A program made the translations under genes and the position numbers. Under the pieces are notes generated by a model. It was not told the origin of the DNA. It saw only the letters and a program-made list of their open reading frames with translations, and searched no databases. A stretch of 36,871 bases of DNA, from positions 1-36,871 of the forward strand of contig MGBU01000238.1 in assembly GCA_001790205.1 (NCBI GenBank). Reading direction: 5' to 3'. The stretch comes from Candidatus Rokubacteria bacterium GWA2_73_35. Its GTDB lineage: Bacteria > Methylomirabilota > Methylomirabilia > Rokubacteriales > CSP1-6. Positions within the stretch are counted from its first letter, which is position 1; every line of letters begins with the position of its first letter. Positions 2,916 to 36,457 of the stretch are shown here, one piece after another.

Positions 2916-2929
2916 ATGACGCCCGTCAT
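2916..2929 (+). promoter_or_regulatory. Crp/Fnr-family-like operator upstream of the USP gene
   Basis: Perfect inverted repeat ATGAC-GCCC-GTCAT (TGA-N6-TCA core), centred ~31 bp upstream of a TAGGAT -10-like hexamer (2954-2959). Confidence 0.55.
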
Positions 2930-2966
2930 ATTGCGGCGCCCCCCGCGCGCGCTTAGGATGGCCCCG

Positions 2967-7334: not shown

Positions 7335-8060
7335 GTGAGAACCCTGGGGGCGCTCGTTCTCTCGGCGGTGCTGGCGGCACCGTCGCTCGCGGCCGGCTAC
7401 GACGTGGCGCCGGTCGCCGGTGGGGGCACGGTGGCGGGCAAGGTCTCGTTCAAAGGCGAGGCGCCGAAGCCCAAGCGGATGCTGATCACCAAGAACAAGG
7501 AGGTCTGCGGCGAAGGACAGCGGGAGATCGTCGAGGTGGCCGTCAAGGGCGGCGCGCTCGGGAACGCCGTGGTCGTCCTCGACGGCATCGCCAGGGGCAA
7601 GGCGTGGGCGCCACAGAAACCGCTCCTAGACCAGAAGGGTTGCCGGTTCATCCCGCCCCTGATGGTCGTCCGGAAGGGCGCGGACATCGACATCCTCAAC
7701 AGCGACCCGGTCCTGCACAACATCCACACCTACGAGATCATCGGCTCGGCGCGCCGCACCCTCTTCAACTTCGGCCAGCCGAACCAGGGGCAGACGCTCG
7801 GCAAGCCTGTCAACCTCCGCCGCGGCGAGTGGGTGAAGGTCGAGTGCGACGCCCACGACTTCATGCACGCGTGGATGTACGGGGCAGCCTCGCCGTACGT
7901 GGCCGTCACCGGCGAGGACGGCAGCTTCACGATCGGCGACGTGCCGCCCGGGAAGTACAAGATCCGCGCCCTGCATCCGGTCCTCGGCGCCAGGGAGGGT
8001 GAGGTGACGGTGACGGCGAAGGGCAAGGCGGAGATCTCGTTCGACTTCCCGGCGCGGTGA
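7335..8060 (+). CDS. Secreted cupredoxin-like protein with carboxypeptidase-regulatory-like beta-sandwich
   Basis: AGGAGG RBS at 7321-7326, GTG 7335, Sec signal peptide (..APSLA-A), LDQKGCRF, NSDPVLHNIH, KVECDAHDFMHAW (type-1 Cu-like H...C-x2-H-x2-M), TGEDGSFTIGDVPPGKY. Confidence 0.75.
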   Translation: MRTLGALVLSAVLAAPSLAAGYDVAPVAGGGTVAGKVSFKGEAPKPKRMLITKNKEVCGEGQREIVEVAVKGGALGNAVVVLDGIARGKAWAPQKPLLDQKGCRFIPPLMVVRKGADIDILNSDPVLHNIHTYEIIGSARRTLFNFGQPNQGQTLGKPVNLRRGEWVKVECDAHDFMHAWMYGAASPYVAVTGEDGSFTIGDVPPGKYKIRALHPVLGAREGEVTVTAKGKAEISFDFPAR

Positions 8061-8075
8061 GCGAGGAGGCTGGCC

Positions 8076-10262: not shown

Positions 10263-10274
10263 GAGGCGCACCCC

Positions 10275-10826
10275 ATGAGCCCGCACGAACACTCCGCCGA
10301 GCGGCCGTGCCTGTCGCGGCGCGCCTTCCTCCTGTCGGGCGGCACGGCGGTCACCGTGACGCTCCTCGACGGCCCCTTGAACCGCGCCTTCGGCCAGGGT
10401 GCCGCGCTCAAGCGGGCCAGCTACCCCGCGCGGCGGATCGGCCGGATCAGCCAGCTCGCGGTGGACCGGCCCGTGCCGTTCCAGTACCCGTGGAAGGACG
10501 CCTACTCCGCGAACATGCTCGTGAAGCTCGGCGTGCCCGCGGGCGGCGGCGTCGGCCCGGCCCGGGACGTCGTCGCGTTCTCGACGCTCTGCACCCACAT
10601 GGGCGGGCCGCTCGCCGGCCAGTACCGCGGCCAGCACAAGGTCGTGGGGCCCTGCCCCCTCCACCTCACCACGTTCGACCTCACCAAGCACGGCATGGTC
10701 GTCTCCGGCCAGGCCACCGAGACCCTCGCCCAGGTCGTGCTCGAGGCGCGCGGCGACGAGATCTGGGCCACCGGCGTCATGGGGCTCATCTACGGCTACC
10801 ACTCGAACCTGGCCGGGCGGGCCTGA
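10275..10826 (+). CDS. idrB: Tat-exported Rieske [2Fe-2S] small subunit (AioB/IdrB-like)
   Basis: AGGAGG RBS, twin-arginine SRRAFLL, Rieske motifs CTHMG and CPLH, GGVGP..DVVAFS and GVMGLIYG typical of AioB-family subunits. The idr label depends on context. Confidence 0.8.
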   Translation: MSPHEHSAERPCLSRRAFLLSGGTAVTVTLLDGPLNRAFGQGAALKRASYPARRIGRISQLAVDRPVPFQYPWKDAYSANMLVKLGVPAGGGVGPARDVVAFSTLCTHMGGPLAGQYRGQHKVVGPCPLHLTTFDLTKHGMVVSGQATETLAQVVLEARGDEIWATGVMGLIYGYHSNLAGRA

Positions 10827-10839
10827 GGAGGCGAGCCAC

Positions 10840-13509
10840 ATGGCGCAGGGCGTGACCCCCTACTACCTGCCGGAGGACCGGATCCCGCTCCCGCCGGCCG
10901 ACGCGAAGGTGACGACGACGGCGTGCGACTACTGCATCGTCGGCTGCGGCTACAAGGTCTACACCTGGCCGCTCGGCCGCGAGGGCGGCCCCCGCGCGAG
11001 CCAGAACGCGCTCAGGGCCGAGTTCCCGGCGAAGGTGAACAGCGGCAAGTGGATCAGCCCGAACATGCACAACCTCGTGATGGTGGAGGGCCGGCCCCAT
11101 CACGTCCTCGTGGTCCCCGACGGCGACGCCAGGGTCGTGAACGTCGGCGGCAACCACTCGATCCGCGGCGGCGTGCTCGCGCAGAAGTGCTTCAACCCGA
11201 ACAAGCCCTCGCAGGAGCGGCTGCTCTACCCGATGATGCGGGTGCGCGGGACACTCCAGCCGGTGTCGTGGGACACGGCGCTCGACGTGATGGCCGGTGT
11301 CTCCCGTCACGTCCTCGACCGGCACGGCGAGCACGCGTGGGCGATGAAGACCTACTCCTACCAGTATTTCGAGAACACGTACGCGATCAGCAAGCTCGCG
11401 TTCGGCGCGATCGGCACGCCGGCCTACGCGCCTCACGACAAGCCGGGTCCCGGGCCCGACACGCCGGGACTCGACTGGGCCGGGATCGACGCCTTCAGCG
11501 CCTCGTACGAGGACTGGGGCATGGCCGATGTGATCTTCTTCTCCGGGGTGGACCCCTACGAGACCAAGTCGGTCCTGTTCACGTCCTGGATCATGCACGG
11601 CCAGAACCCTGACAAGAAGCTGATCTTCGCGCTGCCACGCAAGACGATGGGCGTCGCCTGGGGCGAGCAGCGGGGCGGGCTCTTTCTCCAGGTGATCCCC
11701 GGCACCGACACCGTGCTCCACCTGGCGCTGATCCGGATCATCCTCGAGAACGGCTGGGAGGACCGGGACTTCATCGACAGGTGGGTCGCCAATTCCTGGG
11801 AGATCGACGCCGGCATGGGGCGCGGCACCCGGAACACGCCCTGGCAGTGGTTCACGACGTGGGGACGCTACGGGATCGACTTCGCTGGGTACAGGAAGTG
11901 GATCCTCGGCTACAGGTGGGCCGAGCTCGACACCGCCGCTCGGCTCACGGGCGTGCCGGCCGCGTCCATCAGGCAGGCGGCCGAGATGCTCGCCAGGCCG
12001 CGGCCGGACGGCTCGCGCCCCAGGACGTCCTTCATGCTCGAGAAGGGCAACTACTGGTGCAACAACCTCGGCAACACGACGTCGTATGCGGCGCTCGGGC
12101 TCGTCTGCGGGGCCGGCAACCGGCCGGGCCGCGTGATCTCACGCGGCGGCGGCCATCAGCGGGGCTGGATGGGCGGGGCCGGCTACCCGCGCGGCCTCTC
12201 GCCCGAGAAGTATCCCGGGCGGCGAAAGAAGGAAATCGACCTCGACCGCTGGGTTGCCGAGGGCAACGTGCGCTTCGCCTGGGTGATCGGGACCACCTGG
12301 CTGCAGGCCATGGCCGCCTCGCAGGAGCTGATGGACGTCTTCCACCGGCTCACGCGCCAGAGCCCGCACCAGATCGCGAGCACGCGCCCGGCGGCCGCGA
12401 TCGAGAGCCTCACGCGACGCGCGGACTCGGGCGGCATGGTGGTCGTGCACCAGGACATCTACCCGGTGGACCCGATCGGCACCCAGCTCGCCGACCTCGT
12501 CCTGCCGGCCGCCACGTGGGGCGAGGAGGACTTCACCCGCTGCAACGGCGAGCGCCGCCTCCGACTGTACGCGCAGTTCAACGACCCGCCCGGCGAGGCC
12601 AGGCCCGACTGGCAGATCATCGCCGGGTTCGCCAGGAAGATGGGCTTCGAGGGCTTCGACTGGAAGGACTCGAACGAGATCTTCGAGGAGGCCGCGCGCT
12701 TCGGCCGGGGCGGCGTGCTCAACTACCACCCGCTCGTCGTGAAGGCCAAACAGGAGGGCAGGCGCGCCCACGACCTGCTGCGGGCGTACGGCACCGAGGG
12801 CATCCAGACGCCGATCCGGATGGTCGGCGGCAAGCTCGTCGGCACCAAGCGCCTGCACGACTCGACGCTCCAGCTCGGCACCCCGGAGGGCCCCACGACC
12901 CATCCGAAGTGGCTCACGGCCTTCGGCACCCATTCGGGGAAGGCCGTGCTCCTCAGGAGCTACTGGGAGGATTTCCAGGACTTCTACGAGGCGGTCAAGC
13001 CCACCGGTGACGAGCTGTGGGTCACCAACGGACGGATCAACGAGACGTGGCAGTCGGGCTACGACGACTTCCGCCGCCCCTACATCATGGCCCGGTGGCC
13101 CTCGATGTTCGTCGAGATGCACCCGGATGACGCCAGCGCGCGGGGCATCGAGAGCGGCGACCTCGTCGCCGTCGAGAACGACCGTGTGCTCGTGCAGACG
13201 GGCGGCTTCCAGGGGGTGGAAGAGAAGGAGCTCACGTTCACCGAGCTCCGCCGGGCCGGCCACATCAAGACGACCACCGCGAGCTTCACGGCGGTGGCCG
13301 TCGTCTCCGACGCGGTGCGCCGGGGCGTGGTCTGGGCGCTCATGCTCTGGCCGGGCTCGCCCGCCAACTCGGTCGTGCCCCAGGTGCCGGACCCGGTGAC
13401 GAACCGGGCGCGCTTCAAGCTCGGCAAGGGCCGGGTCACGAAGCTCGGCGAGAGCCCGCACAAGCGGTCGTTCACGACGATGTCGCTCAAGCCCCGGCCG
13501 ATCGTGTGA
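10840..13509 (+). CDS. idrA: AioA-related Mo-bisPGD catalytic subunit, most likely iodate-reductase (IdrA) or neighbouring clade
   Basis: [3Fe-4S]-type CDYCIVGCGY...NHSIRGG, LEKGNYW, RGGGHQRG, NGERRLRLY, TNGRINETWQS. No own signal peptide. Flanked by Rieske and diheme peroxidase genes as in idrABP1P2. Family certain, substrate not. Confidence 0.75.
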   Translation: MAQGVTPYYLPEDRIPLPPADAKVTTTACDYCIVGCGYKVYTWPLGREGGPRASQNALRAEFPAKVNSGKWISPNMHNLVMVEGRPHHVLVVPDGDARVVNVGGNHSIRGGVLAQKCFNPNKPSQERLLYPMMRVRGTLQPVSWDTALDVMAGVSRHVLDRHGEHAWAMKTYSYQYFENTYAISKLAFGAIGTPAYAPHDKPGPGPDTPGLDWAGIDAFSASYEDWGMADVIFFSGVDPYETKSVLFTSWIMHGQNPDKKLIFALPRKTMGVAWGEQRGGLFLQVIPGTDTVLHLALIRIILENGWEDRDFIDRWVANSWEIDAGMGRGTRNTPWQWFTTWGRYGIDFAGYRKWILGYRWAELDTAARLTGVPAASIRQAAEMLARPRPDGSRPRTSFMLEKGNYWCNNLGNTTSYAALGLVCGAGNRPGRVISRGGGHQRGWMGGAGYPRGLSPEKYPGRRKKEIDLDRWVAEGNVRFAWVIGTTWLQAMAASQELMDVFHRLTRQSPHQIASTRPAAAIESLTRRADSGGMVVVHQDIYPVDPIGTQLADLVLPAATWGEEDFTRCNGERRLRLYAQFNDPPGEARPDWQIIAGFARKMGFEGFDWKDSNEIFEEAARFGRGGVLNYHPLVVKAKQEGRRAHDLLRAYGTEGIQTPIRMVGGKLVGTKRLHDSTLQLGTPEGPTTHPKWLTAFGTHSGKAVLLRSYWEDFQDFYEAVKPTGDELWVTNGRINETWQSGYDDFRRPYIMARWPSMFVEMHPDDASARGIESGDLVAVENDRVLVQTGGFQGVEEKELTFTELRRAGHIKTTTASFTAVAVVSDAVRRGVVWALMLWPGSPANSVVPQVPDPVTNRARFKLGKGRVTKLGESPHKRSFTTMSLKPRPIV

Positions 13510-13547
13510 GGGCGGGGATCGCGAGAGCTGGGATATAGTCTCGTGCG

Positions 13548-15542
13548 ATGACGCCTCGAGCGCGGGAGCGCCCGCGCGGCCGGACGCGCCGGACGGCCGC
13601 GAGCCTCGTCGCCTTCGCCTGCGTCCTGGCCGCGGCCGTCGCCCTGGCGGCCGGCCCGCCCGCGGCGGCCGCCGGCGGGGCCGCGGCGGCCGAGTACCGG
13701 AGCTTCTACGGGACCAGCGCGCGCCTCGTCGTCTGGATCGTCGCCGAGCTGCACCTGATGTTCGGCGCGTTCGTCCTCGGCGTGCCGATCTTCGCCTCGA
13801 TCGTCGAGGTCATCGGCTGGCGCGGCGGCGACCCACGCTACGACCGGCTCGCCCACGAGTTCACGGGGCTCCTCGCGGCCGCGTTCTCGACGACGGCGGC
13901 GTTCGGCGGGCTCCTGGTGTTCGCGCTGATCGGCCTCTACCCGCGGTTCATGACCTTCCTGACCTCGGTCTTCCACGAGACCTACTACGTCTACGCGCTC
14001 CTGTTCTTCGCCGAGGGCTTCACCCTCTATCTCTACTACTACGGCTGGGACCGGATGCGCGGGCGCCTGAAGGGGCTCCACGTCGCCCTCGGGATCCTCC
14101 TGAACGTCTGGGGCACGGTGCTGATGCTGATCGCGAACGCGTGGGTCGCCTACATGATGGCGCCCACCGGGATCGACAGGAAGACGCTGGAGTTCGTGGG
14201 GACCACCTGGCAGGCGGTGGCGAACCCTCTCTGGATCCCGCTCGCGATCCACCGCGTGCTCGGCAACGTCGCGTTCGGCGGCTTCATCGTCGGCGCGTAC
14301 GCGGCCGTCAGGTTCCTGGGCGCGCGCACCGAGGCGGCGCGGGCCCACTACGACTGGATGGGCTACGTCGGCAACTTCGTGGGCCTCGGCGCGCTGATCC
14401 CGCTGCCCTTCGCGGGCTACTACCTGGGCCGGGAGATCTACTCCACGAGCGCGGTCATGGGCAACAACATGATGGGCGGCGCCTTCTCGTGGACCTTCAT
14501 CCTCCAGGCCGTGCTGATCGGGATCCTGTTCATCGGCGGCAACTACTATCTCTGGATCGGCATGGGCCGCATCGAGGGCGCCGAGCGCTACCGGCCGTGG
14601 GTCAAGTACATCAACCTGGTGCTCCTCCTCTCCTTCGCCGTCTGGCTCACGCCGCGCAACGTCCCGCTGACGGGCGAGGAGCAGACGGCCCTGGGCGGCC
14701 AGTTCCACCCGCTGCTCAAGTACCTCGGGCTCATGTCGGCGAAGAACGCGGCGGTGAACTTCATCATCCTCAGCACGTTCTTCTCCTTCCTCCTCTACCG
14801 CCGCGGCAACAAGGGACGCCCGCGCCCCTTCGCCGCGCACGGGCGCGTGGGCCTGCTCGTGCTGACCGCGGGCGCCGCCGTCGCGATCTCGATCCTCCTC
14901 TGGTACGCGCGCGCCCTGCTCACCCTCGACCCGAAGACGCTCGACCTCACCGCGGCCCAGGCCGGCTACTTCAAGCCGCCCGCGTACCTCCTGCTCGGCC
15001 AGGCCGTCATGGTGCTCGTGACCGCGACGCTCGCCCTCCGCGATCGGGGGACGCTCGCCCAGGCGCTCTTCTTCGCCTCCACGACGCTGGCGTCGGTCTT
15101 CGTGCTCGGCGTCTACGGCTTCGTCGTCATGGAGCGCGCGAACCCCTTCCTCCGGAACGTGGCGGTCGCCCAGTGGCTCATGGTGATGGTGTGCCTCCTC
15201 TGGAACACGGTGCTCGATGTCCTCGTGTTCCGCGGCGCCGAGACCGCGGGCGGCATCCGCTGGGGCCGGATGCCCGCGCGCTCGCAGTACACGCTGATTC
15301 TCCTCTGCGTGACGATCGTGATGCTGATGGGGCTCATGGGCTTCATCCGCTCGGGCCTGCGCGAGGACTGGCACGTCTACGGCGTCCTCCAGGACACCTC
15401 GCCGTGGGCCTGGACCCCGACCACCGCGTACATGACCCGGGTCGTCGGCGCGATCGTGCTCGGCTTCCTCGGCCTGGTGGCCTTCGTCTTCTGGCTCGCG
15501 GGGCTCGGCGAGAAGAAGGACCACGGCGGGGCGCCCGCGTGA
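13548..15542 (+). CDS. Cytochrome bd-like oxidase subunit I (CydA-like, Nitrospira/anammox bd-like type)
   Basis: Many TM helices; AELHLMF (heme His), FFAEGF, AIHRVLGNV (heme His), MGFIRSGLREDWHVYG equivalent to the CydA GRQPW motif. No recognisable Q-loop. TATAGT -10 at 13534-13539. Confidence 0.8.
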   Translation: MTPRARERPRGRTRRTAASLVAFACVLAAAVALAAGPPAAAAGGAAAAEYRSFYGTSARLVVWIVAELHLMFGAFVLGVPIFASIVEVIGWRGGDPRYDRLAHEFTGLLAAAFSTTAAFGGLLVFALIGLYPRFMTFLTSVFHETYYVYALLFFAEGFTLYLYYYGWDRMRGRLKGLHVALGILLNVWGTVLMLIANAWVAYMMAPTGIDRKTLEFVGTTWQAVANPLWIPLAIHRVLGNVAFGGFIVGAYAAVRFLGARTEAARAHYDWMGYVGNFVGLGALIPLPFAGYYLGREIYSTSAVMGNNMMGGAFSWTFILQAVLIGILFIGGNYYLWIGMGRIEGAERYRPWVKYINLVLLLSFAVWLTPRNVPLTGEEQTALGGQFHPLLKYLGLMSAKNAAVNFIILSTFFSFLLYRRGNKGRPRPFAAHGRVGLLVLTAGAAVAISILLWYARALLTLDPKTLDLTAAQAGYFKPPAYLLLGQAVMVLVTATLALRDRGTLAQALFFASTTLASVFVLGVYGFVVMERANPFLRNVAVAQWLMVMVCLLWNTVLDVLVFRGAETAGGIRWGRMPARSQYTLILLCVTIVMLMGLMGFIRSGLREDWHVYGVLQDTSPWAWTPTTAYMTRVVGAIVLGFLGLVAFVFWLAGLGEKKDHGGAPA

Positions 15543-18855: not shown

Positions 18856-19715
18856 AGCTCGGCGCAGCGGGCGCACACACCGTCGGCGGGCCGCCAGGCC
18901 GGGAAGTCGCGGACGATCGCCGCGAGCGCGCGGCCCGCGAGCGTCGCGCCGGCGACCACGACGGGTCCCGGCAGGTCGCAGAGCCCGCAGCGGGGCCGCG
19001 GGGCGGCCTCCGGACCACCGACGGCGAACGCCATGAGGTCCGCGTGGCTGCGCTGGTCGGCGTCGAAGAAGCGCGCGAAGGCCGACTCGGCGGCCTCGCC
19101 CAGGTAGGCGTACGCGCGCGCGAACTCGCGAAGGCGCTCGGCGCGCGAGCCGGCGGGGAGGCACCCGCGGCGCGCGAGCCGCCCGTCCACGTAGGCGTTC
19201 CAGAGCACGCGGTAGTTCTCGCGGACGAGGTGCTCGCGCGGGCCGCCGGCGACGTCGGCCGGCACCCCCGGCGCGTAGCCGAAGCGCGGGTCGAGCATGT
19301 CGGCCACGTGCAGCAGCTCGCGGCGGAGGAGGACGCCCAGCCGCGCCGGCGCGGCGACGGTCTCGCAGGTCACCCGGACGAGGAGCGTCGGGGAGGCCCC
19401 CGGGGGGACGAGCAGGTCGGCGCCCTCGTCACCACGCCGGCGCGCCCAGGCGACGAGCCAGCGCGCGCAGCGGGCGACGATCGCCGGCCGCTCCTCGAGG
19501 GCCTCGCGGAACGGCCGGTCGAGTCCCAGGCGCGCGAACCACGCCGCGTGGAGCGTGTCGAAGGCCGTCTCGCGCTCGGCGCCCTCGGCGATCCCGTAGA
19601 GCCGGTCGCGCTCGGCGCGGAAGCGTGCCTCCTCCGCCCGCCCGGCCACGGCGAGGAGCACGGCCCCCTCGACGAGACGCGGCTCCCACTCGGGCTCGAG
19701 GCGCGCCGGCGTCAT
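18825..19715 (-). CDS. Hypothetical protein with C-terminal CxxC...CxxC (putative Zn-binding), last gene of the nxr-like operon
   Basis: ATG at 19715 overlaps the TorD stop (ATGA). RELLHVADMLDPRFGY segment, CGLC...CARC. The 3' end overlaps the convergent cytochrome gene by 31 bp. Confidence 0.65.
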   Translation of the reverse strand: MTPARLEPEWEPRLVEGAVLLAVAGRAEEARFRAERDRLYGIAEGAERETAFDTLHAAWFARLGLDRPFREALEERPAIVARCARWLVAWARRRGDEGADLLVPPGASPTLLVRVTCETVAAPARLGVLLRRELLHVADMLDPRFGYAPGVPADVAGGPREHLVRENYRVLWNAYVDGRLARRGCLPAGSRAERLREFARAYAYLGEAAESAFARFFDADQRSHADLMAFAVGGPEAAPRPRCGLCDLPGPVVVAGATLAGRALAAIVRDFPAWRPADGVCARCAELYASRAAASA

Positions 19716-20548
19716 GCCTCGAGCGGGGCGCCGGCCGGCCCGCAGGCCATCGGCGTCGCGTCGGGCGCCGTGGAGCGGAGGCTGAGAAAGGACGGGCCGA
19801 CGGCGACGCCCGCGCGCCCGCACTCGGCGGTGACGACCCCGACGAGCAGGCCGCCGAGCACACCGTAGAACCCATCGGGGTCGAGTCGCGCGAGCGCGCC
19901 GCCGAAGGCGGGCGCCCAGCGGCCCAGGTGGTCGCGGAGGAACAGGCGCGTGGCGCGGCGCGCCTCGTCGCCGAGCGGCGCGTCGCCGAGCGCCGAGGCG
20001 CGCGCCTCGCGCCGCGCCAGGACGAGGAGGAACTCGCACTCGCAGGCGATGTGGTCGGGGCGCTCGCGGGCGCCGGGATCGAGCACGAGGCCGAAGGCGC
20101 GGAAGAACGCCCCGAGGTCGCTCATCTCGCGCTGAGGCGCCCAGAGCGAGTCCTCGCCGTACTCGGTCTCGTAGGGCGACGCCGCGCCGCGCGCGGTGTG
20201 GCCGAACAGGCGGCCGTATGCGAGGCCGAGCGCCTCGCCCGACGGCGCCGGCGCGACGGCGAGCGCCCGCACCAGCGGCGCGAGCGCGGTCCCGTCCGCG
20301 GCGTCGAGCGGCGCGGCCGCCTCGGCGAGCGCGCCCGCCCCCTCGGCCCGTGCGAGCCGCGCGACCGTCTCCTCGGTCGGTGGGCAGAAGCCAAGCACCA
20401 GCGCCTCCCAGAGGGCGCTTCGACAGAGCAAGAGATCCACCGCTTCGAGCGCGGGCTTTGCCCGCGCCTTCGACGGGGGGAGGTTCGGAAGGGGGGCGGA
20501 GCCCCCCTCCGAGCTAGATCGAGTTGGCGTGCCTGCTCGATCGGACAT
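19712..20548 (-). CDS. TorD/DmsD-family molybdoenzyme maturation chaperone
   Basis: YGRLFG, SPYETEY, ERPDHIACECEFL, FLRDHLGRW. Start uncertain: the N-terminus crosses a hairpin element, and an in-frame GTG at 20440 is an alternative. Confidence 0.85.
   Translation of the reverse strand: MSDRAGTPTRSSSEGGSAPLPNLPPSKARAKPALEAVDLLLCRSALWEALVLGFCPPTEETVARLARAEGAGALAEAAAPLDAADGTALAPLVRALAVAPAPSGEALGLAYGRLFGHTARGAASPYETEYGEDSLWAPQREMSDLGAFFRAFGLVLDPGARERPDHIACECEFLLVLARREARASALGDAPLGDEARRATRLFLRDHLGRWAPAFGGALARLDPDGFYGVLGGLLVGVVTAECGRAGVAVGPSFLSLRSTAPDATPMACGPAGAPLEA
20475..20514. repeat. G6-leader + GC hairpin (REP-like element, copy 2) immediately after the nxrB stop
   Basis: GGGGGG-AG then stem GTTCGGAAGGGGGGC / GCCCCCCTCCGAGC with a GGA loop and one bulged A. 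Confidence 0.55.
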
Positions 20549-21779
20549 GGATCGGCTCCTCGACCTTCGTCCGGAACAGCTCCTCGCCGCGCCGCCCGTA
20601 GGCGATCACCGTGTCGTCGTGGACCGTGACCTTCCTGCCGCGCAGCGTGCCCTCGTACACCTTCGGACCCTCGACGACCTTGTAGCCGAAGATGATCTTG
20701 TTCGACCGCCGGAAGAGCTGGAGCACGGCGGTCAGCTCGCGGTCGGGCTTCTCGTAGCGCTCGAGCGCCGCGTCCACGCCGGGGCCGAACATCTGCCGGA
20801 GGTAGGGGCGCGGCACCCAGCGCGGGGGAATGTAGTAGCCGTTCGGCTCGGTGCCGAACTGCGGGTAGAGCGGCAGGGCCACCTTCGCCACATGCACGAG
20901 GTAGTAGAGCGGGTTCTGCCGGTCCTCGGCCCAGGTGCCGTCCGGGTTCAGCCTGACGAGCCCCTGGAGCCGGATCTGGCCGATGCACGCCGCCATGCAG
21001 CGCGTCTCGAGCGGCACGCCGCCGCTCTCCGGGTCCCTGCCCTCGACGCGCGGGTAGCAGGCGACGCACTTCTCCGACACCCGCGTGTTGCCGCGGTACA
21101 TCGACTTCTTGTACGGGCACGCCTCGACGCACTTCCGGTAGCCGCGGCACTCGGCCTGATCGATGAGGACGATCCCGTCCTCGGGCCGCTTGTAGATCGC
21201 CTTGCGCGGGCAGGCGGCCAGACAGGCCGGATACTGGCAGTGGTTGCAGATGCGCGCGAGATAGAAGAACCAGGTCTTGTGCTCCGGCAGCGACTCGCCG
21301 GTCCTGTGGTACTCGCGGGGCTTGCCGCGCTCGCCGACGGGGTTGTCCTCGTAGATGTTCGGCGAGTTCCACTCGTCGTCGGCCGGCAGGTAGCCGAGCA
21401 CGCGCGCGCTGTCGGGGGTCAGCATGCGTGGGGCCTCGAAGATCGTCTGCCCCTCGAACCGACCCCAGGGGCCCCGAGGGTCGCCGGCGGGCGCGCCGGT
21501 CCAGCGCTGGCCGTCCGGGTTTGCGCGCTCGAGCAGCTCCAGGATCTTCATGTCCCAGAACATCGGGTAGCCGCCGTAGGGCTTCGTCTCGACGTTGGCC
21601 CACCACATGTGCTCCTGGCCCTTCGAGAAGGTCCACGTGGACTTGCAGGCCATCGTGCAGCTCTGGCAGGCGATGCAGCGGTTGATGTTGAACACGAACG
21701 CGAACTGCGCGCGGGGATACGCCGCATCGTACGTGTAGGTCATCTCCCGGCCGAGCTGCCAGTTGTGGACGCGCGCCAT
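20514..21779 (-). CDS. nxrB: Nitrite oxidoreductase beta subunit (periplasmic Nitrospira/anammox type), Fe-S protein
   Basis: N-terminus VHNWQLGREM..QFAFVFNINRCIACQSCTMACKSTW..KGQEHMWWANVETKPYGGYP; CNHC..PACLAAC, CRGYRKCVEACPYKK, EKCVACYPR...CMAACIG; PLYPQFGTEPNGYYIPPR. Confidence 0.9.
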   Translation of the reverse strand: MARVHNWQLGREMTYTYDAAYPRAQFAFVFNINRCIACQSCTMACKSTWTFSKGQEHMWWANVETKPYGGYPMFWDMKILELLERANPDGQRWTGAPAGDPRGPWGRFEGQTIFEAPRMLTPDSARVLGYLPADDEWNSPNIYEDNPVGERGKPREYHRTGESLPEHKTWFFYLARICNHCQYPACLAACPRKAIYKRPEDGIVLIDQAECRGYRKCVEACPYKKSMYRGNTRVSEKCVACYPRVEGRDPESGGVPLETRCMAACIGQIRLQGLVRLNPDGTWAEDRQNPLYYLVHVAKVALPLYPQFGTEPNGYYIPPRWVPRPYLRQMFGPGVDAALERYEKPDRELTAVLQLFRRSNKIIFGYKVVEGPKVYEGTLRGRKVTVHDDTVIAYGRRGEELFRTKVEEPIHVRSSRHANSI

Positions 21780-21782
21780 ACG

Positions 21783-22076
21783 CTAGTCCCTCCCGGTCAC
21801 TTCGGCGGCCGGCGGCCCCGTGTGGGCGCCGAACACGCCGACGCACTCCCGGACGATCGCGGTGACTTCGGTCTCCCCGAGCAGTCGAAGAGCGCGGTGG
21901 GCGCCGGCGTAGAACGGCGACCGGAACAGGCCGAGGATCCGCGGCGCGTCGAATCCCATGCGCGCGAACTCCTCGGCGAACACCCAGGCCATGTCCCGCG
22001 TCGCCTCCAGCTCCGCCGGAAGCGCCACGCCCACCAGGACGCCGGGATCGGTCGGATCCGGGTCGCCGTACGGCAC
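21783..22076 (-). CDS. Small hypothetical protein between nxrA and nxrB
   Basis: 97-aa ORF filling the gap exactly (1 bp after the nxrA stop, 3 bp before the nxrB start); protein-like composition (DPDPTDP..GV..MAWVFAEEFARMG..LFRSPFY). Confidence 0.7.
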   Translation of the reverse strand: MPYGDPDPTDPGVLVGVALPAELEATRDMAWVFAEEFARMGFDAPRILGLFRSPFYAGAHRALRLLGETEVTAIVRECVGVFGAHTGPPAAEVTGRD

Positions 22077-22077
22077 G

Positions 22078-25000
22078 CTAGGCCTTCCGGTAGAGGTCGC
22101 CGGCGATGTAGCGCTTCATGAACTCGTTCTCGTTGTCGGGCGTGAATCCGGTCGTCGCGGGCGCCCAGACGCCCCTGCCGCCGAGGCCGCCGTCCTCGGC
22201 CTTGGTGACCTTCACGAGCGTCTCCTTGGGCACCGTGTTGAGCGCGTGGTTGTCCGCCTCGCCGCCGAAGATGAACCCCATGAAGACCTTGGCCTTGTGG
22301 AACAGCGAGTCGGTCTGGTGCATCGGCATGTGCCAGTTGCGCGTGACGGACTGCTGCGAGCCGTAGCGCAGGTTCGCCTGGTAGCCGGTGTTCTCGCTGA
22401 GCGCGCGGCCGTCGGGACGGGTTTCGTGCGCCTTCACGCTCTTCTCGGTGGCGATGAACGGCGCGTGCTTCATCATGACGCAGTCGTACGGGTACGCGTG
22501 GTTGTACTTCACGCGGAGCATGCAGCGCGACACGCGATAGAACGGGTCGTCGGGCCGTGCGCCCAGGTACGGCCGGTCGGCCGGGTTCGCGTCCACGTAA
22601 ACATAATCGCCGTCGTTGATTCCCAGGTCGCGCGCAGCCTGAGGATTCATGTGGAGCTGGTGCTCCCCGACCGAAGGGGCCCGCTTGTCGAGACGGTACG
22701 GATCCCCGAAGTTGGAGTCGTACAGCATGTGCCAGTCCACGTTCGACCAGCCCGAGTGGACGCGGTGGCGCGTCTTCGGCGTGAGACAGTAGAAGTGGTA
22801 GCCCTTCTCCCAGAGGAAGTTCTTCGTCCCTTTGACCCGGCTCCACGGGAGCTTCACGTTGCGGATCGTTCGCTCGTCCCAGTGCTCCGCCGTGAGCGGG
22901 ATCCCGTAGTCGTCCGGGCGAACGAGCGGGTTCGAGGACACGATGACGTTCGGCAAGTACGGCGTCGCCTCCGGGCCCTCGCGGTGCACGATGAAGTTCT
23001 CGCCATACTCGATCGCCTCGGGGACGTCGGCGTACGCGTGGAGCCGCCCGGTGTCGGTGTGGAACGGCTCCGAGTCGTGGACCTGCTCCCAGAACGGGAT
23101 GCGCGGATAGGTGCGGAAGAGCATGAGCGCGCCGCCGCGCGGCCCGTACTTGCCCGCCATGATGTCGGCGAGCCTGTAGCCGGCGGTCGTCGTCGAGGTG
23201 TCGAGCAGGCGCTGGATGTAGACCTCGCGCCCGCCCGCGAGCGCGAACTTGAAGTAGTCGGCGAAGCGCCGGTCGCCGGTGACGTCCGCGAGCGCCTTCG
23301 CGATCCCCGCGAGGATCATCAGGTCGTCGCGGCTGTCGAAGACCGGCGGAATGCCGCCCTTCCAGATCTGGAGGAACGGGTTCGAGCAGCTCGCCGTCAC
23401 CTCGAGCCCCTCGAACTCCAGCCAGCTGTTGGCCGGCAGCGCGATGTCCGCGTACTCGATCGACGCGGTCATCTGGATGTCGATCGCGACGATCATCTCG
23501 ACCTTCGGGTTCACGTTCTTGATGACGCCGTACGCCCACTTGGCGTTGTTGATCAGGTTGACGTTCGTGAAGATGATCGCCTTGCTCGGCGTGGGCATGT
23601 GGGTGTCGCCGGTGAAGTTCCGCCGGCCGTACTTCGGCGTGTCGACGATCAGCGCGAGGTCGCCGTGGTTCCAGTACGCGGGCTCCTCGTCCTTCGTGTA
23701 CGCGTGCGCCTCCACGTCGCGGCCGTGGGCGCCGGGGTCGAGGTTCGGCTGGAACGGGTCCTCGGCGACCCAGCCCTTGAAGCCCGGGCCCGTCTCCTTC
23801 GAGCCCTGGAAGAGGGCCGCCTTGTAGTTCCCCGCCCAGGTGTGGCACCCCGCGCCGGGCTTGCCGATGTTGCCGGTGAGCATCAGCGGCAGGTACGCGG
23901 CGCGGTTCATCTCGGTCGCGTGGAACCAGTGGTTGATCCCCTCGCCCTGGTGGATCGCCACCGGCCTCATCGTGCCGATGTCCTGCGCGAGCTGCCGGAT
24001 CAGGTCCCCGGGCGCCTGGGTGATCTCGACGACCGTGTCGAGGTCGTAGTCCTTGAGGTGCGTGCCGTAGAGGGTCCAGAGGGTGGCGACCTCCACCTCC
24101 GCGCCGTCCACGAGCTTCACCTTCCAGGTTCCGTCGAGAGCCGGCCGGATGCCCTTCGCCGCCATCCGCGCACCGACGTCGTCGCGCGTGAGGGCGCGCA
24201 GGGCCCCCGCCTGCGCGTCCCAGACGACGTAATCGCCGAGCCTGGCGTGCTGCTCGGCCGTGAGTCCCTGGACCTTCACCGAGGGGCCGTCGGGCGCGAG
24301 CGTCGTCCTGTAGCCGGGGAAGACCTCGTGGGCGCGCAGGCGCCGCAGCGTGTCGGTGCGGACGAGGAGCGGGAAGTCGGTGAAGGCCCGGACGAAGCCC
24401 TCGTCGTACCACTTGTTCTCGAGCATCAGGCGCGTGACGCCGAGCCAGAGGGCGGCGTCGGTCTGGGGCCGGATGGGGATCCAGTAGTCCGCCTTGGTGG
24501 ACGGCGGCCCGTACTCGGGCGCGATGACGACGATCTTCGCGCCGCGCTCCATGCACTCGATGAACCAGTGGGAATCGGTGAGCTTGTTCTCCACCAGGTT
24601 CTTGCCGTCCATGATGATGAGCTTGGAGAACCGGAGGTCGTTGAAGTCGCAGTCCGAGGCCTGGAGCCCGTGCACCCAGGGGTGGCCGGGCGCCTGGTCG
24701 CCGTGCCAGGTGTAGTTGGACCAGTTGCGGCCGGCCTTCGCGTCCTTCGATCCGACGCGACGGATCGCCGCGTCGAGCAGCGCGAGGGAGTTGTTGAGCC
24801 GGTACATGCCGTACTTGCCGATGACGCCGAGGAGCCCCATGCCGCCGCGCATCTTGATCGTGCGCGTGCCGGCGCCTCCCATCGCCTCGACCATCTCCGG
24901 CTGGTAGCCCTGCGCGAGCAGGCGCGCCTTCCCGTCCTCGCCGCTGTAGCTTTCGGCGATCTTGACCAGCGCCTTCGCGATGCAGGCGAAGGCGTCCTCC

Positions 25001-25515
25001 CACGCGATCTGGACGAACTCGTCCTGGCCGCGCGCGTCGAACATGTACTTCGTGCGGAGCTCGGGCGTGAGCTCGGGGAAGCCGGCGTCGGCCCACGCCT
25101 TCCAGCCCCTGCGCACGATCGGGTGCTTGAGGCGGTAGGGCCCGTAGAGCACCCGGTGGAACGTGTAGCCCTTGGCGCACTGGCGCGGGTTCCAGTTCGC
25201 GGTGGCGTGGTTGCCGTCGAGGTCGGCATAGGTCTGGTAGTCGTAGGTGTTGCCCAGCCGCGTGACGACGCCGTTGCGCACGAAGGCTCGCACGCGGCAG
25301 GCGTGGGTGTCGTTGGGCGAGCAGACCCAGTCGAAGGTGCGGTCGTAGGCGTACTGGTCGCGGTAGATCTTCTCCCAGTCGCGGGCCACCGAGCCCGCCA
25401 GGGGGTTCTGGTCGGGATCGGCCGCCGCAAGGAGCCTGAGCGGCAGCGCGAGCTCGGTCGCGGCCGCCGTGCCGGCGCCGAGGCCGAGCCAGCGGAGGAA
25501 TTCACGTCGCTCCAT
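22078..25515 (-). CDS. nxrA: Nitrite oxidoreductase alpha subunit, Tat-exported (Nitrospira/anammox-type NXR; direction of catalysis unknown)
   Basis: GAGGAGG RBS, Tat signal MERREFLRW, FS0 motif CSPNDTHACRVRAFVRNG...WNPRQCAKG, Mo-Asp motif NYTWHGDQAPGHP, HREGPEATPYLPNVIVS, TPKTRHRVHS, YGSQQSVTR, NTVPKETLVK; 1145 aa. Confidence 0.9.
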   Translation of the reverse strand: MERREFLRWLGLGAGTAAATELALPLRLLAAADPDQNPLAGSVARDWEKIYRDQYAYDRTFDWVCSPNDTHACRVRAFVRNGVVTRLGNTYDYQTYADLDGNHATANWNPRQCAKGYTFHRVLYGPYRLKHPIVRRGWKAWADAGFPELTPELRTKYMFDARGQDEFVQIAWEDAFACIAKALVKIAESYSGEDGKARLLAQGYQPEMVEAMGGAGTRTIKMRGGMGLLGVIGKYGMYRLNNSLALLDAAIRRVGSKDAKAGRNWSNYTWHGDQAPGHPWVHGLQASDCDFNDLRFSKLIIMDGKNLVENKLTDSHWFIECMERGAKIVVIAPEYGPPSTKADYWIPIRPQTDAALWLGVTRLMLENKWYDEGFVRAFTDFPLLVRTDTLRRLRAHEVFPGYRTTLAPDGPSVKVQGLTAEQHARLGDYVVWDAQAGALRALTRDDVGARMAAKGIRPALDGTWKVKLVDGAEVEVATLWTLYGTHLKDYDLDTVVEITQAPGDLIRQLAQDIGTMRPVAIHQGEGINHWFHATEMNRAAYLPLMLTGNIGKPGAGCHTWAGNYKAALFQGSKETGPGFKGWVAEDPFQPNLDPGAHGRDVEAHAYTKDEEPAYWNHGDLALIVDTPKYGRRNFTGDTHMPTPSKAIIFTNVNLINNAKWAYGVIKNVNPKVEMIVAIDIQMTASIEYADIALPANSWLEFEGLEVTASCSNPFLQIWKGGIPPVFDSRDDLMILAGIAKALADVTGDRRFADYFKFALAGGREVYIQRLLDTSTTTAGYRLADIMAGKYGPRGGALMLFRTYPRIPFWEQVHDSEPFHTDTGRLHAYADVPEAIEYGENFIVHREGPEATPYLPNVIVSSNPLVRPDDYGIPLTAEHWDERTIRNVKLPWSRVKGTKNFLWEKGYHFYCLTPKTRHRVHSGWSNVDWHMLYDSNFGDPYRLDKRAPSVGEHQLHMNPQAARDLGINDGDYVYVDANPADRPYLGARPDDPFYRVSRCMLRVKYNHAYPYDCVMMKHAPFIATEKSVKAHETRPDGRALSENTGYQANLRYGSQQSVTRNWHMPMHQTDSLFHKAKVFMGFIFGGEADNHALNTVPKETLVKVTKAEDGGLGGRGVWAPATTGFTPDNENEFMKRYIAGDLYRKA

Positions 25516-25536
25516 CCGCTTCCTCCTCAGAGCGAG

Positions 25537-27225
25537 TCATGGTTCGAGCACGAGGTCCTGCCAGATCGTGACGGACTTCTTGCCGTCCCTATCCCCGGCG
25601 CTGCCGTTCCAGACCGCGAAGCCCACCGAGACCGTCGTGCCCGGCGTCAGCGTGACGGCGCCCGCGCCGCGGCCGGCGAGGTCGCGGCGGAACATCACGC
25701 GGTACGTCCCGGTCGCGTAGACGCCGCGCGCGTCCACCGCCTGGTCGCCGCGCGAACGCGCGCGGAGGGTGCCGAACCCCTGGGCGACGAGGTCCTCCGC
25801 CGGGCTCCGTCGCGAAGGGTCGGAGACGATGTTGCCGGCGCCCCAGCCGGTCACGAACGTCGGATCCGAGTCGAGCGTCAGCGCGTGCCGCGTCGGCTGC
25901 TCGTACGGCGCCACCAGGAGGTTCGGATAGGAGTCGATACCGAGGTTCGGGTAGACCTTCTCGAGATCCTGGAAGGCGGGTTCGAGATCCGCCTGCCGCT
26001 CCGACTTCCACATCCAGATGTTGACGAACCGTTCCCGCTCCCCCATCGCGAAGAACGGCGGATCGGCGGTCGGCGAGAACTGAACGGCCACCGCGTCGCG
26101 GAAGTCCTGGGGCCGCATCGCGGTGTGGTCGTGTGTGGCGTCCGACCACATGAGGAGGAGCGCCACTTGCTTGCCGTCGTGCAGCGCGCGCACCGTGACC
26201 TCCTCCGGCCGGTCCGTCCGCCACCAGAGCGGCATCAGGTGGAGGTTCACGGGCTGGGCCCGGCGCCACGCCCCGGAGTCCGGATGCTCGGGCAGCCGGT
26301 CGACCCGCCGCGCGAGGATACGGAACTTCCGCATCTCGGCGCGCGCGCGCTGCGCGTCGCTCGACCAGGACCGGATCAGGTTCACGAGGTGCCACGCCTC
26401 GTCGCCGTACGCCCAGTCGCTCATCGGCATCGGCGTCCCCGGCAGTCCCGCCACGATCCGTCGATAGAGGTGGACGGGGTCCGGGGCCCCCTTGAAGACC
26501 CCCAGCGTCAGGTCCCGCGGGCGCGTCGGATAGCCCAGATCGTCCTTCTGGGCCTCGGCACCGTCGCCCTTGCCCGTCGGACCGTGGCACGAGGCGCACG
26601 CGTCGGCGTACCGATCGAGCGCGAGCTTGCGCGCCGCAGCGGTGAACGCCGGCGCGGGCGGCACGCGGATCAGGCCCGTGCCGGCCTGGCCTTCGCCCTT
26701 CGGATCAGCCGCGGCGGCGAGGATCCAGGGCTTGGTGGCGAAGCTCTTGATGTAGTGGACGAGCGCCCAGCGCTCCTCCTCCGACAGGTGGCCCCACGAG
26801 GGCATCGCCGACCCGGGCATGCCGCGGGAGATGGTGAGGTAGAGATCCTCGTCGGTCGGCACGCGCTCCCACGTCGACACCAGGCGGTAGTTGCCGGTCG
26901 TGAAGTCCCGCGGCTTCGGGTAGAGCAGGTATGCGGCCTCGCCGGCGCCGCGTCCGGTCGTGCCATGACAGGCCGCGCACTGCCGGTCGTAGACGCGCTT
27001 GCCGAGGGCCAGGAGCTCCGGTGACGCGGGCCGACCGAGCATCGGCGTCAGCCTGACCGGGAGCGGCTGGCCGGTGCCGGCGACCACCGCCGCCGCGACG
27101 GGCGTGCCCGCCGCCGGCCCGGCGGGGCCGGGCGAGGCGGGCTGGGACGTCGTACACCCGGTGCCGCCGAGCAGCGCCGAAGCGAGAACCGCGGCCGGGA
27201 CTCCGTGGCGCAGGCGCACACCCAT
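25537..27225 (-). CDS. Putative lipoprotein: diheme cytochrome c fused to EB_dh heme-b domain (NxrC/gamma-like subunit)
   Basis: Signal with lipobox-like GGTGC; CAACH (PKPRDFT..AMP) and CASCH (..PMP); C-terminal DAVAVQF..PPFFAMGE..VNIWMWK and FAVWNGSAGDRDGKKS with the Met/Lys ligand pattern of EbdC-type gamma subunits. First gene of the operon. Confidence 0.8.
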   Translation of the reverse strand: MGVRLRHGVPAAVLASALLGGTGCTTSQPASPGPAGPAAGTPVAAAVVAGTGQPLPVRLTPMLGRPASPELLALGKRVYDRQCAACHGTTGRGAGEAAYLLYPKPRDFTTGNYRLVSTWERVPTDEDLYLTISRGMPGSAMPSWGHLSEEERWALVHYIKSFATKPWILAAAADPKGEGQAGTGLIRVPPAPAFTAAARKLALDRYADACASCHGPTGKGDGAEAQKDDLGYPTRPRDLTLGVFKGAPDPVHLYRRIVAGLPGTPMPMSDWAYGDEAWHLVNLIRSWSSDAQRARAEMRKFRILARRVDRLPEHPDSGAWRRAQPVNLHLMPLWWRTDRPEEVTVRALHDGKQVALLLMWSDATHDHTAMRPQDFRDAVAVQFSPTADPPFFAMGERERFVNIWMWKSERQADLEPAFQDLEKVYPNLGIDSYPNLLVAPYEQPTRHALTLDSDPTFVTGWGAGNIVSDPSRRSPAEDLVAQGFGTLRARSRGDQAVDARGVYATGTYRVMFRRDLAGRGAGAVTLTPGTTVSVGFAVWNGSAGDRDGKKSVTIWQDLVLEP

Positions 27226-36324: not shown

Positions 36325-36457
36325 CGCCGAACGGCCCAGGTCCGTGGTGCGGGCGGCCCAGCGGGCGGCTTGGGGCGGCGGCGCCCACGTGGGGCGCCCT
36401 CGCCCCGCGCCCGCCTCGCGTCGGCCCGGGCGCGGGGGCGCGTGCTACTATCCGCGC

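Follow-up and report, generated by a model that had tools for sequence, protein, structure and literature searches.

Iodate reductase (Idr) gene clusters, periplasmic nitrite oxidoreductases (NXR) and the bd-like oxidases of the OR-N family are each known already. The gene order idrP2-idrP1-idrB-idrA is given as characteristic of iodate reductases in the available text of PMC10989891. The accessible sections of PMC8692401 place Rokubacteria, NC10 and Lindowbacteria among the deep branches of the IdrA clade and note that loci of the arsenite oxidase AioA are notably without cytochrome c peroxidases. The model given there for Pseudomonas sp. SCT has H2O2 and O2 as intermediates of iodate respiration, with a terminal oxidase that respires the O2. 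OR-N enzymes are described, in the available parts of a preprint (bioRxiv 10.1101/2021.01.16.426971) and of PMC10839748, as lacking a quinol site, as encoded beside alternative electron donors in their operons and as enzymes of unproven function that probably oxidize cytochrome c. Which oxidant sustains the seemingly anaerobic oxidation of nitrite in oxygen-deficient waters is a listed open question in the portions consulted of PMC11373643, with iodate as a candidate. Here we describe an island (positions 7335–27225) in which genes of all three kinds lie together. The window analysed is an entire 36.9-kb contig (C238) of a metagenome-assembled genome (MAG) of a Candidatus Rokubacteria bacterium (G000; G, C and L numbers are our handles for genomes, contigs and loci). 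Within it, an idr-type operon that contains a bd-like module converges on a complete NXR operon. This idr-NXR composite is real and recurrent, but it is a minority pattern that occurs in varied gene orders. Its recurrent physical linkage appears to be new: the preliminary description of this DNA knew of no account of the two systems as one locus, and we found no published description of idr with nxr, or of idr with an OR-N gene, as a single locus, although figures and supplements of idr papers may show such neighbours.

The island consists of two convergent transcription units, not three, because the plus-strand array and the minus-strand operon are equally tightly packed (Table 1). Genes were called from third-position GC content, given the high GC of the DNA, and then checked against Pfam and NCBIfam. 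Signal peptides, haem sites and transmembrane (TM) segments were assigned by motif inspection and a hydropathy scan rather than by a signal-peptide predictor. From position 7335, plus-strand intergenic gaps measure 15, 12, 13 and 38 bp; two start/stop overlaps of 4 bp come next, in which the dihaem cytochrome start overlaps the cydA-like stop and the trihaem start overlaps the stop before it (GTGA). The minus-strand NXR operon has gaps of 21, 1 and 3 bp, then a 35-bp overlap and finally an ATGA start/stop overlap that joins the chaperone gene to the last gene of the operon. The 3′ ends of the two operons overlap by 31 bp (18825–18855). The middle module, which comprises the cydA-like gene and two cytochrome genes, is predicted to be translationally coupled to, and transcriptionally part of, the idr operon. 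Separate promoters for three modules, as earlier envisaged, are not supported by this tight plus-strand packing. Consensus scans of the DNA were uninformative at 72% GC, both for promoters (no sites against 0.6 expected) and for terminators (5 against 4.7 expected). The start previously chosen for the trihaem gene was not kept, and is placed at 16522, where it overlaps the preceding stop. The gene map and domain matches otherwise agree with the preliminary description in gene content, Tat export and convergent layout, in the lack of any unrelated gene between the two systems, and in the island total of 11 CxxCH motifs (4+2+3+2).

The linkage recurs beyond the window. Among 250 genomes of the phylum Methylomirabilota, including G000, an IdrA-like gene (threshold E ≤ 1e-150) is present in 17 and an NxrA-like gene in 66. 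About 47 of the latter carry true NXR, defined as an NxrA-like protein at ≥55% identity; the remaining NxrA-like proteins are paralogues at 38–45% (G104, G135 and G012 are counted in these phylum tallies only, and no specific claim uses them). Contig G095:C3 (120.8 kb), from a 98%-complete genome of another family, has the window's gene set in another order and on one strand. It reads nxrC-nxrA (84%)-orf97-nxrB-narJ-unknown, then after a 2.1-kb gap cydA-like (68%)-dihaem c-cytochrome/EB_dh, and continues with usp, kinase, the beta-sandwich gene, fused peroxidases, Rieske, idrA-like (60%) and an NXR-like paralogue, a 45-kb stretch in all. On G093:C17, nxrB (66%)-narJ-cytochrome/EB_dh lies directly upstream of peroxidase-Rieske-idrA, and in an Omnitrophica MAG (L090) nxrC-nxrA (73%) lies directly upstream of idrP-P-B-A on the same strand. 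The two systems converge as in the window on a complete Vicinamibacterales chromosome (L096/G250), with about 6.6 kb that includes porin and serine dehydratase genes between them. The linkage spans Methylomirabilota, Acidobacteriota and Omnitrophota and at least three separate idrA clades. A synteny search had been proposed in the preliminary description, and its outcome is that the adjacency is not unique to this genome. On an IdrA tree (FastTree, 90 rows; L056 and L137 dropped for short coverage), NXR-adjacent loci account for four changes, at least three of them forced by well-supported branches, and they cluster no more strongly than shuffled labels (267 of 500 shuffles were as low).

Frequencies give the scale of the pattern. 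In a comparison set of 80 idr loci from other species, of which only 32 have the full 10 kb on both sides, the fetched flanks hold a true NXR gene in two loci and an NXR-like paralogue in two (L072 and L101). Within the phylum, 11 of the 17 genomes with idr also have true NXR, compared with about 36 of the 233 without idr, counts that kinship inflates. Twenty idr-bearing genomes outside the phylum were also tested, two of which (L090 and L096) were chosen after their adjacency had been seen and 18 for taxon spread and flank length; L101, among the 18, was already known to have an adjacent NXR-like paralogue. Seven of these 20 genomes have true NXR, which is adjacent to idr in two and on other, mostly short, contigs in five. 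Where an idr-like cluster and true NXR occur in the same genome (about 18 cases), the two lie ≤10 kb apart in four (G000, G093, G250 and G251) and ≤23 kb apart in G095. Adjacency is more frequent than chance would give by our own rough expectation of 0.5–1% per genome, for genomes that are not all independent.

The contig itself appears sound. G000 is a 3.54-Mb MAG in 281 contigs, 77% complete with 1.5% contamination; GC content is even along the full window (66–79%), and the top protein matches of the window bear the source labels Candidatus Rokubacteria, NC10 or Methylomirabilota. Possible chimeric joins near 13510–13547 and 18825–18855 had been named as something to exclude. The former, the idrA-to-cydA-like junction, is found again in G019:C45, G037:C303 and metagenome contigs L137, L145 and L154. 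The latter, the convergent junction, is found again in L137 and in G003:C157 from the same genus, where the CydA-like protein (83%) is followed by the unknown protein (79%), the NarJ-like chaperone (88%) and NxrB (93%) up to the contig end. Because both junctions recur in relatives, the joins are judged not to be chimeric. An identical CydA-like protein is present on seven recorded contigs, the longest of 42,651 bp. The stretch 12000–21000 is present in 20 sequencing-run rows from 13 studies, in all as contigs and in 18 with at least half of its words; no RNA dataset is among the 20 run rows listed. Genomes G034 and G093 were counted once because their contigs seem to have been binned twice and are hence not independent: G034:C36 (L036) and G093:C45 (L048) are identical in sequence, with a 400-bp L036 fragment exact in L048, and G034:C21 and G093:C12 give the same match figures, though the two MAGs are assigned to different families.

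The catalytic subunit of the plus-strand operon falls within the peroxidase-linked IdrA clade, apart from AioA. It nests on the tree among Methylomirabilota, Nitrospinota and Proteobacteria (Rhodocyclaceae, Burkholderiales and Azospirillaceae), with AioA-like proteins at 40% identity as a distant outgroup on a long branch. Tree rows are without the experimentally verified IdrA of Pseudomonas sp. SCT or that of Denitromonas sp. IR-12, and the placement relies on the clade members listed in the consulted part of PMC8692401. The protein scores 303 bits against solved AioA and >1300 bits within its own clade, and it is 60–83% identical to proteins encoded after two peroxidase genes and a Rieske gene in many phyla. 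The family is large (1354 IdrA-like proteins at E ≤ 1e-20 among 8000 candidates scored). Peroxidase genes precede the IdrA-like gene in 75 of the 80 other-species loci and a Rieske gene does so in 69; homologues of the beta-sandwich protein occur upstream of the peroxidase genes in 33. Fused peroxidases are also found in L091, L112, L122, L128, G095 and G232. Both window subunits pass the arsenite-oxidase models TIGR02693 and TIGR02694, which evidently also capture the Idr clade, and the neighbourhood is not of the peroxidase-free aio type, since the fused double peroxidase gene lies directly upstream. The P2-P1-B-A gene order and the listing of Rokubacteria and NC10 as deep IdrA-clade members bear out the Idr-like label given earlier, and operon 1 is best annotated as encoding an iodate-reductase-type enzyme with iodate as its predicted substrate.

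Candidate substrate residues were also considered as a means to separate Idr from Aio. The residues that we take to contact arsenite in Alcaligenes AioA (His195, Glu203, Arg419 and His423) correspond in the window protein to His, Asp, Arg and His, with three of the four identical, and they fail to discriminate between the two enzymes. Because these presumed contacts are largely kept, arsenite oxidation is unlikely rather than excluded. Among related clusters, Nitrospinota MAGs (L063, L067, L069 and L073) have complete idr-type clusters with IdrA-like proteins 72–77% identical to that of the window. Three Nitrospinota MAGs were tested for true NXR, which is present on other contigs in G265 and G266 and was found nowhere in G253; a comparative paper on Nitrospinota contains no occurrence of the word iodate. 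Locus L076, labelled as a Methanobacteriota archaeon, carries an IdrA-like gene of 68% identity together with peroxidase and Rieske genes of bacterial type, and is probably a mis-binned bacterial contig.

The minus-strand operon encodes the complete periplasmic NXR set, with NxrB, the EB_dh haem-b subunit NxrC and a NarJ-type chaperone beside the catalytic subunit. NxrA matches Kuenenia NxrA (7B04_B) over residues 2–1142, whereas the next structure, the perchlorate-reductase-type 4YDD, scores only 194.9 bits. For NxrC, the scores are 97.3 bits against Kuenenia NxrC (7B04_C) and, over its residues 70–286, 144.3 bits against 6H5L_B. NxrB is 79–93% identical to NxrB of G003, G040 and G095. The 97-aa open reading frame (ORF) has 58–65% identical counterparts at the same position in G034, G040 and G095. 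The protein encoded by the last gene of the operon has homologues in NXR operons of several phyla (G003, G040, G095, L096, L217, L218 and L220); searches of Pfam, NCBIfam and the PDB gave no match for it, and the Atlas gave only unnamed clusters. By orthology, and as claimed in the preliminary description, this is a genuine anammox/Nitrospira-type periplasmic enzyme, whose direction in vivo we infer. Because the NXR has a complete subunit set of its own, a dedicated shared wire between NXR and Idr is not supported.

Other NxrA-like genes occur in the phylum. A type II DMSO-reductase paralogue that shares 36–45% identity with NxrA, and is accompanied by NxrB-like and EB_dh genes of its own, is widespread, with examples at L044 8124–11555 (G095), L054 156–3584 (G092), L101 14069–17476 and L039 5266–8694 (G040). 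In G092, G095 and an Elusimicrobia MAG the gene for this paralogue comes directly downstream of idrA; in G040 it is beside true NXR. An NxrA-like match at 54% identity (G059:C18:298799–301966) is interrupted by seven in-frame stops, all TGA, which may reflect a pseudogene, a frameshift in the match or a signal of recoding.

The CydA-like protein of the middle module is matched by PF01654 over residues 58–294 only (profile positions 2–234 of 418). No PF01654 match extends past position 234, in the quinol-loop region, and the hydropathy scan gives about 12–13 hydrophobic segments. Aligned to Geobacillus CydA (5DOQ_A), it retains the Glu in ‘FFaEg’ and two His residues, one in the first aligned helix and one near residue 235, which we take to be haem ligands and part of the proton channel of CydA. 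On the profile and alignment together, the N-terminal four-helix O2-reduction core is kept, and the protein fits the OR-N family of the cytochrome bd superfamily. With the two cytochromes it would form a membrane complex with five haem c and one EB_dh haem b, which we read as a putative cytochrome-c-dependent bd-like reductase of O2 or reactive oxygen species. Relatives at 60–69% identity are named from Nitrospinota and Nitrospirota, and the family is wide (6244 proteins at E ≤ 1e-10 among 8000 candidates). CydA-like matches occur in 126 of the 250 phylum genomes, mostly of the class of a 55%-identical paralogue in the source MAG (G000:C150:12736–14022), which lies about 5 kb from a COX1-family gene (C150:6131–7525).

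Residues 283–493 of the trihaem protein give 204.8 bits to the dihaem cytochrome 6H5L_B. Its cytochrome part looks like the usual partner of Idr because a dihaem cytochrome of about 215 aa that matches residues ~258–495 adjoins idr in six loci (L090, L096, L121, L122, L092 and L099). The possibility that the trihaem protein is a second, membrane-anchored NxrC and thus a hub is weakened by its EB_dh domain, which scores 34 bits to Kuenenia NxrC and the same to EbdC, and by similar cytochrome-EB_dh proteins beside idr in a Rhodocyclaceae MAG with no NXR match. Chain B of 6H5L, titled ‘conserved hypothetical cytochrome protein’, is matched by the dihaem unit of both EB_dh proteins of the island (205 and 144 bits) and is presumably an anammox dihaem cytochrome.

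Distribution of the CydA-like module points to autonomy. It occurs together with idr, behind it, in G019:C45, G037:C303, L137, L145, L154 and L091. In G169:C50, G220:C50, G247:C75, G107:C33 and G034:C21 the fetched flanks of the module hold neither idr nor NXR. The module is autonomous, because it stands alone in these relatives and sits downstream of NXR in G095:C3. The earlier idea of a shared electron hub between the two systems fares poorly: the module belongs to the idr operon, it also occurs alone, and NXR has its own NxrC. Among the idr loci of other species, a CydA-like gene is present in the flanks of two of 80 (L057 and L091), and no CydA-like gene or NXR flanks the idr loci of G222, G117, G088, G064 and G063 (~80% identity). 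In G169, homologues of the right flank of the window (acyl-CoA dehydrogenase, ACAD, 87%; amidohydrolase, 93%) lie near a bd-like module with neither NXR nor idr, which suggests that idr and NXR were inserted into, or lost from, an older neighbourhood.

The remaining genes of the window provide context. Homologues of the Usp/PCP_red protein adjoin bd-like or idr modules in G095, G169, L131, L133, L153, L156 and G232, and upstream of idr, G034/G093, G095 and G222 carry homologues of the sensor kinase at 47–61% identity. Acyl-CoA dehydrogenases, an AMP ligase and an enoyl-CoA hydratase are encoded in the flanks. The thioredoxin-like protein upstream of the island could be a thiol-disulfide oxidoreductase as in cytochrome c maturation. 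Another molybdoenzyme locus may lie just beyond the right contig end, where a second chaperone gene and the start of a regulator gene are found.

Table 1. Features of the window, with positions on contig C238 and the supporting evidence
Feature	Position	Strand	Evidence
Window: whole contig C238 of source MAG G000	36.9 kb		
Membrane-anchored AhpC/TSA-thioredoxin-like protein	1441–2082	+	
Usp + PCP_red domain protein	2916–4187	+	Pfam Usp E 2.5e-29, PCP_red E 1.9e-14
Sensor histidine kinase (periplasmic sensor, HAMP, GAF, HisKA_3)	4203–6524	+	Pfam
NarL/LuxR-type response regulator	6527–7171	+	Response_reg E 1.1e-26, GerE E 1.2e-18; third-position GC supports frame
Conserved idr-associated protein: N-terminal hydrophobic (signal or TM) segment + CarboxypepD_reg-like beta-sandwich	7335–8060	+	PF13620, 28.8 bits, below cut-off
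Fused di-haem cytochrome c peroxidases, IdrP2-IdrP1 type, 728 aa	8076–10262	+	CCP_MauG E 8.5e-84 in 2 stretches; TIGR04039 428.4 bits (cut-off 362.85); CxxCH at residues 62, 208, 426, 573; hydrophobic Sec-type N-terminus, residues 5–23
IdrB/AioB-type Rieske subunit	10275–10826	+	TIGR02694 124.1 bits (cut-off 95.65); RRAFL Tat motif at residue 15
IdrA-type molybdopterin subunit, 3Fe-4S + Mo-bisPGD	10840–13509	+	Rieske_3 E 1.3e-33, Molybdopterin E 1.1e-27; TIGR02693 452.9 bits (cut-off 359.05)
CydA-like membrane protein, OR-N (bd-like, non-quinol) kind	13548–15542	+	PF01654 E 1.5e-22
Membrane-anchored dihaem cytochrome c	15539–16525	+	Cytochrom_C E 1e-14; TIGR02603 115.9 bits; CxxCH at 61, 207; TM 5–23
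Trihaem protein: three N-terminal TM segments, 3 haem c, EB_dh haem-b domain	16522–18855	+	Cytochrome_CBB3 E 9.3e-33 in 3 stretches; EB_dh E 7e-22
Conserved hypothetical protein, 296 aa, two C-terminal CxxC pairs; last NXR-operon gene	18825–19715	-	No Pfam, NCBIfam or PDB match
NarJ/TorD-type chaperone of type II DMSO reductases, start uncertain	19712–20548	-	Nitrate_red_del E 2.3e-20; TIGR03482 76.6 bits, below cut-off
NxrB iron-sulfur subunit	20514–21779	-	Fer4_11 E 2.9e-24; TIGR03478 241.6 bits, below cut-off
97-aa conserved ORF between nxrA and nxrB	21783–22076	-	No family match
NxrA, periplasmic (Tat) catalytic subunit	22078–25515	-	1767.1 bits to 7B04_B; RREFL motif at residue 3
NxrC-type EB_dh haem-b subunit fused to dihaem cytochrome c	25537–27225	-	EB_dh E 4.4e-27, Cytochrom_C E 1.3e-18; CxxCH at 83, 210
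Second NarJ/TorD-type chaperone	35582–36265	-	
Start of cNMP-binding (Crp/Fnr-like) regulator	36344–36871	+	

We tentatively favour, at somewhat short of even confidence, a modular periplasmic respiratory island whose branches share a high-potential cytochrome c pool and no dedicated wire. Exchange through a common pool is suggested because every redox protein of the island is on the periplasmic side and either has c-type haems or docks them. NXR would supply this pool with electrons from nitrite. The OR-N complex and the haem-copper oxidases of the genome (G000 has at least four COX1-family genes) would be the energy-conserving O2 sink, and Idr with its peroxidases would be another sink, used for peroxide and for iodate or a similar oxyanion instead of O2. 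The HisKA_3 kinase and NarL-type regulator in front of operon 1 may control the Idr sink. An oxidase next to idr would have a role because the Pseudomonas sp. SCT model, as set out in the available part of PMC8692401, yields O2 from iodate. Several points weigh against a shared pool of this kind. The idr-NXR linkage looks tighter than a loose pool predicts, with the systems adjacent in G000, G093:C17, L090 and L096 and within 45 kb in G095, and idr-bearing genomes, which are kin, are enriched in true NXR both in the phylum (11/17 against ~36/233) and elsewhere (7/20). The sources consulted in part contain no characterized OR-N enzyme and no test of an Idr from outside Proteobacteria, and the NXR may run as a nitrate reductase.

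That last direction is the core of another, less likely reading, in which the two enzymes are alternative terminal reductases: a reversed NXR would be a periplasmic nitrate reductase and Idr an iodate reductase, with the bd-like complex as a third branch for O2, and electrons would come from organic substrates via the quinol pool and cytochrome c. The flanking genes for acyl-CoA and related metabolism and the several COX1-family genes imply a heterotrophic, aerobic-capable host, a NarL-type two-component pair lies upstream, and a modular, variable assortment of units is typical of accessory respiratory islands. NXR is also called reversible in the consulted text of PMC11373643. Against this reading, all characterized members of this NxrA clade oxidize nitrite in vivo, to our knowledge, and the window NxrA is a near-full-length orthologue of the Kuenenia enzyme. 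Domain scans of both operons found no quinol-oxidizing subunit, and the repeated proximity of NXR to a putative cytochrome c oxidase (G000, G003, L137 and G095) fits an electron-donating NXR better. Nitrite oxidation coupled to iodate reduction, a lithotrophy in which NXR electrons pass via c-type cytochromes to IdrAB, seems to us improbable. It is thermodynamically downhill by the potentials given in the preliminary description, every part is periplasmic and haem c-linked, and the adjacency repeats in five genomes from three phyla and in at least three idrA clades, in L090 with nxrC-nxrA and idr on one strand. The enrichment of true NXR among idr-bearing genomes of the phylum likewise speaks for it. 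That description called the coupling an undescribed lithotrophy; the coupling is possible, but the idea is a published hypothesis for oxygen-deficient zones, where iodate is a candidate oxidant for apparently anaerobic nitrite oxidation according to the available parts of PMC8114937 and PMC11373643. The O2 and H2O2 intermediates proposed for strain SCT, in the portion of that work consulted, would fit an extended and equally doubtful scheme of energy-conserving, oxygen-independent nitrite oxidation. Electrons would flow from NXR through the fused dihaem cytochrome c to IdrAB and iodate, IdrP and the OR-N oxidase would reduce the released peroxide and O2, and the OR-N step would build proton-motive force. 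Only that oxidase step could conserve energy because both half-reactions are periplasmic and, by standard bioenergetics, would generate no proton-motive force by themselves.

The wider distribution of the genes also counts against such coupling: idr is absent from 36 of the ~47 NXR genomes in the phylum, three of the first five non-phylum idr genomes tested (including a Nitrospinota MAG and the cultured planctomycete Stieleria marina K23_9, whose chromosome carries the clade member L109) have no NXR, true NXR is as rare near other-species idr loci as noted above, and the porin and serine dehydratase genes separate the systems in the Vicinamibacterales chromosome. Shipboard data cited in the available text of PMC8114937 indicate little iodate reduction with nitrite present, and iodate as the substrate of this Idr clade is itself a prediction. 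Oxidation of arsenite or antimonite by the AioA-like enzyme, which would feed either NXR acting as a nitrate reductase or the bd-like oxidase, is very unlikely. Both subunits exceed the arsenite-oxidase cut-offs, the presumed contact residues align, and OR-N operons often include electron-donating enzymes according to the parts of the OR-N literature consulted; against this stand the low score to solved AioA, the long branch to the AioA-like outgroup, and the two peroxidase genes and P2-P1-B-A order, marks of Idr that the accessible literature reports as missing from aio loci and of which the peroxidases are near-universal in the clade of the window IdrA. Least probable of all is that the two systems lie together only through an error of assembly or binning, or by an accident of gene order that means nothing. 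In favour of this, the window makes up an entire contig of an incomplete, 281-contig MAG, and the contigs shared by bins G034 and G093 show that binning errors occur in the data set. Such an origin is hard to reconcile with the two recurring junctions, the even GC, the seven contigs with an identical CydA-like protein, and the presence of both systems on the 120.8-kb contig of G095 and on the complete chromosome G250.

These loci provide named organisms and gene sets with which iodate-linked nitrite oxidation can be tested. The host is a groundwater or soil bacterium, and the pairing would bear on nitrite oxidation without oxygen, for which coupling is a hypothesis. If coupling is true, the varied idr-nxr neighbourhoods of Methylomirabilota, Acidobacteriota and Omnitrophota would be the sign of a guild of nitrite oxidizers that depend on iodate; if the modules only share a cytochrome pool, the island is a tidy case of a modular respiratory island. 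An OR-N bd-like complex in an Idr operon suggests a dedicated-oxidase role in iodate respiration, and idr-linked OR-N genes offer a handle on the function of this widespread family.

Compared with the Idr clusters of Pseudomonas sp. SCT, Denitromonas sp. IR-12 and Ca. Methylomirabilis iodofontis, the window shares the four functions and their order, the Tat signal on IdrB and the Sec-type N-termini on the peroxidases. It differs in that both peroxidases form a single 728-aa fusion and the cluster begins behind a beta-sandwich gene. After idrA, moreover, the operon continues with an OR-N cydA-like gene and the genes for two membrane cytochromes, and it abuts an NXR operon. AioAB (1G8K and 4AAY) has the same fold family, 3Fe-4S and Rieske cofactors and a Tat-exported small subunit, whereas the window enzyme belongs to a distant clade tied to two di-haem peroxidase genes. 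With the NXR of Kuenenia stuttgartiensis (7B04) and of Nitrospira and Nitrospina, the window shares full-length NxrA with a Tat signal, NxrB, NxrC and a NarJ-like chaperone, and known nitrite oxidizers are likewise described with a bd-like (OR-N) putative oxidase nearby. Unlike these, the host is a Rokubacteria-type MAG and not a known nitrite oxidizer, NxrC includes a fused dihaem cytochrome c, nxrA and nxrB have a 97-aa ORF between them, and the operon ends with a conserved Cys-rich hypothetical protein. The OR-N family (Murali et al., bioRxiv 2021; CydAA′ of Nitrospinota) resembles the middle module in its N-terminal-only CydA match, its His/Glu/His sites and the cytochrome c genes in the operon, whereas the window has a single cydA-like gene in place of CydAA′ and encodes it in one operon with an Idr-type enzyme.

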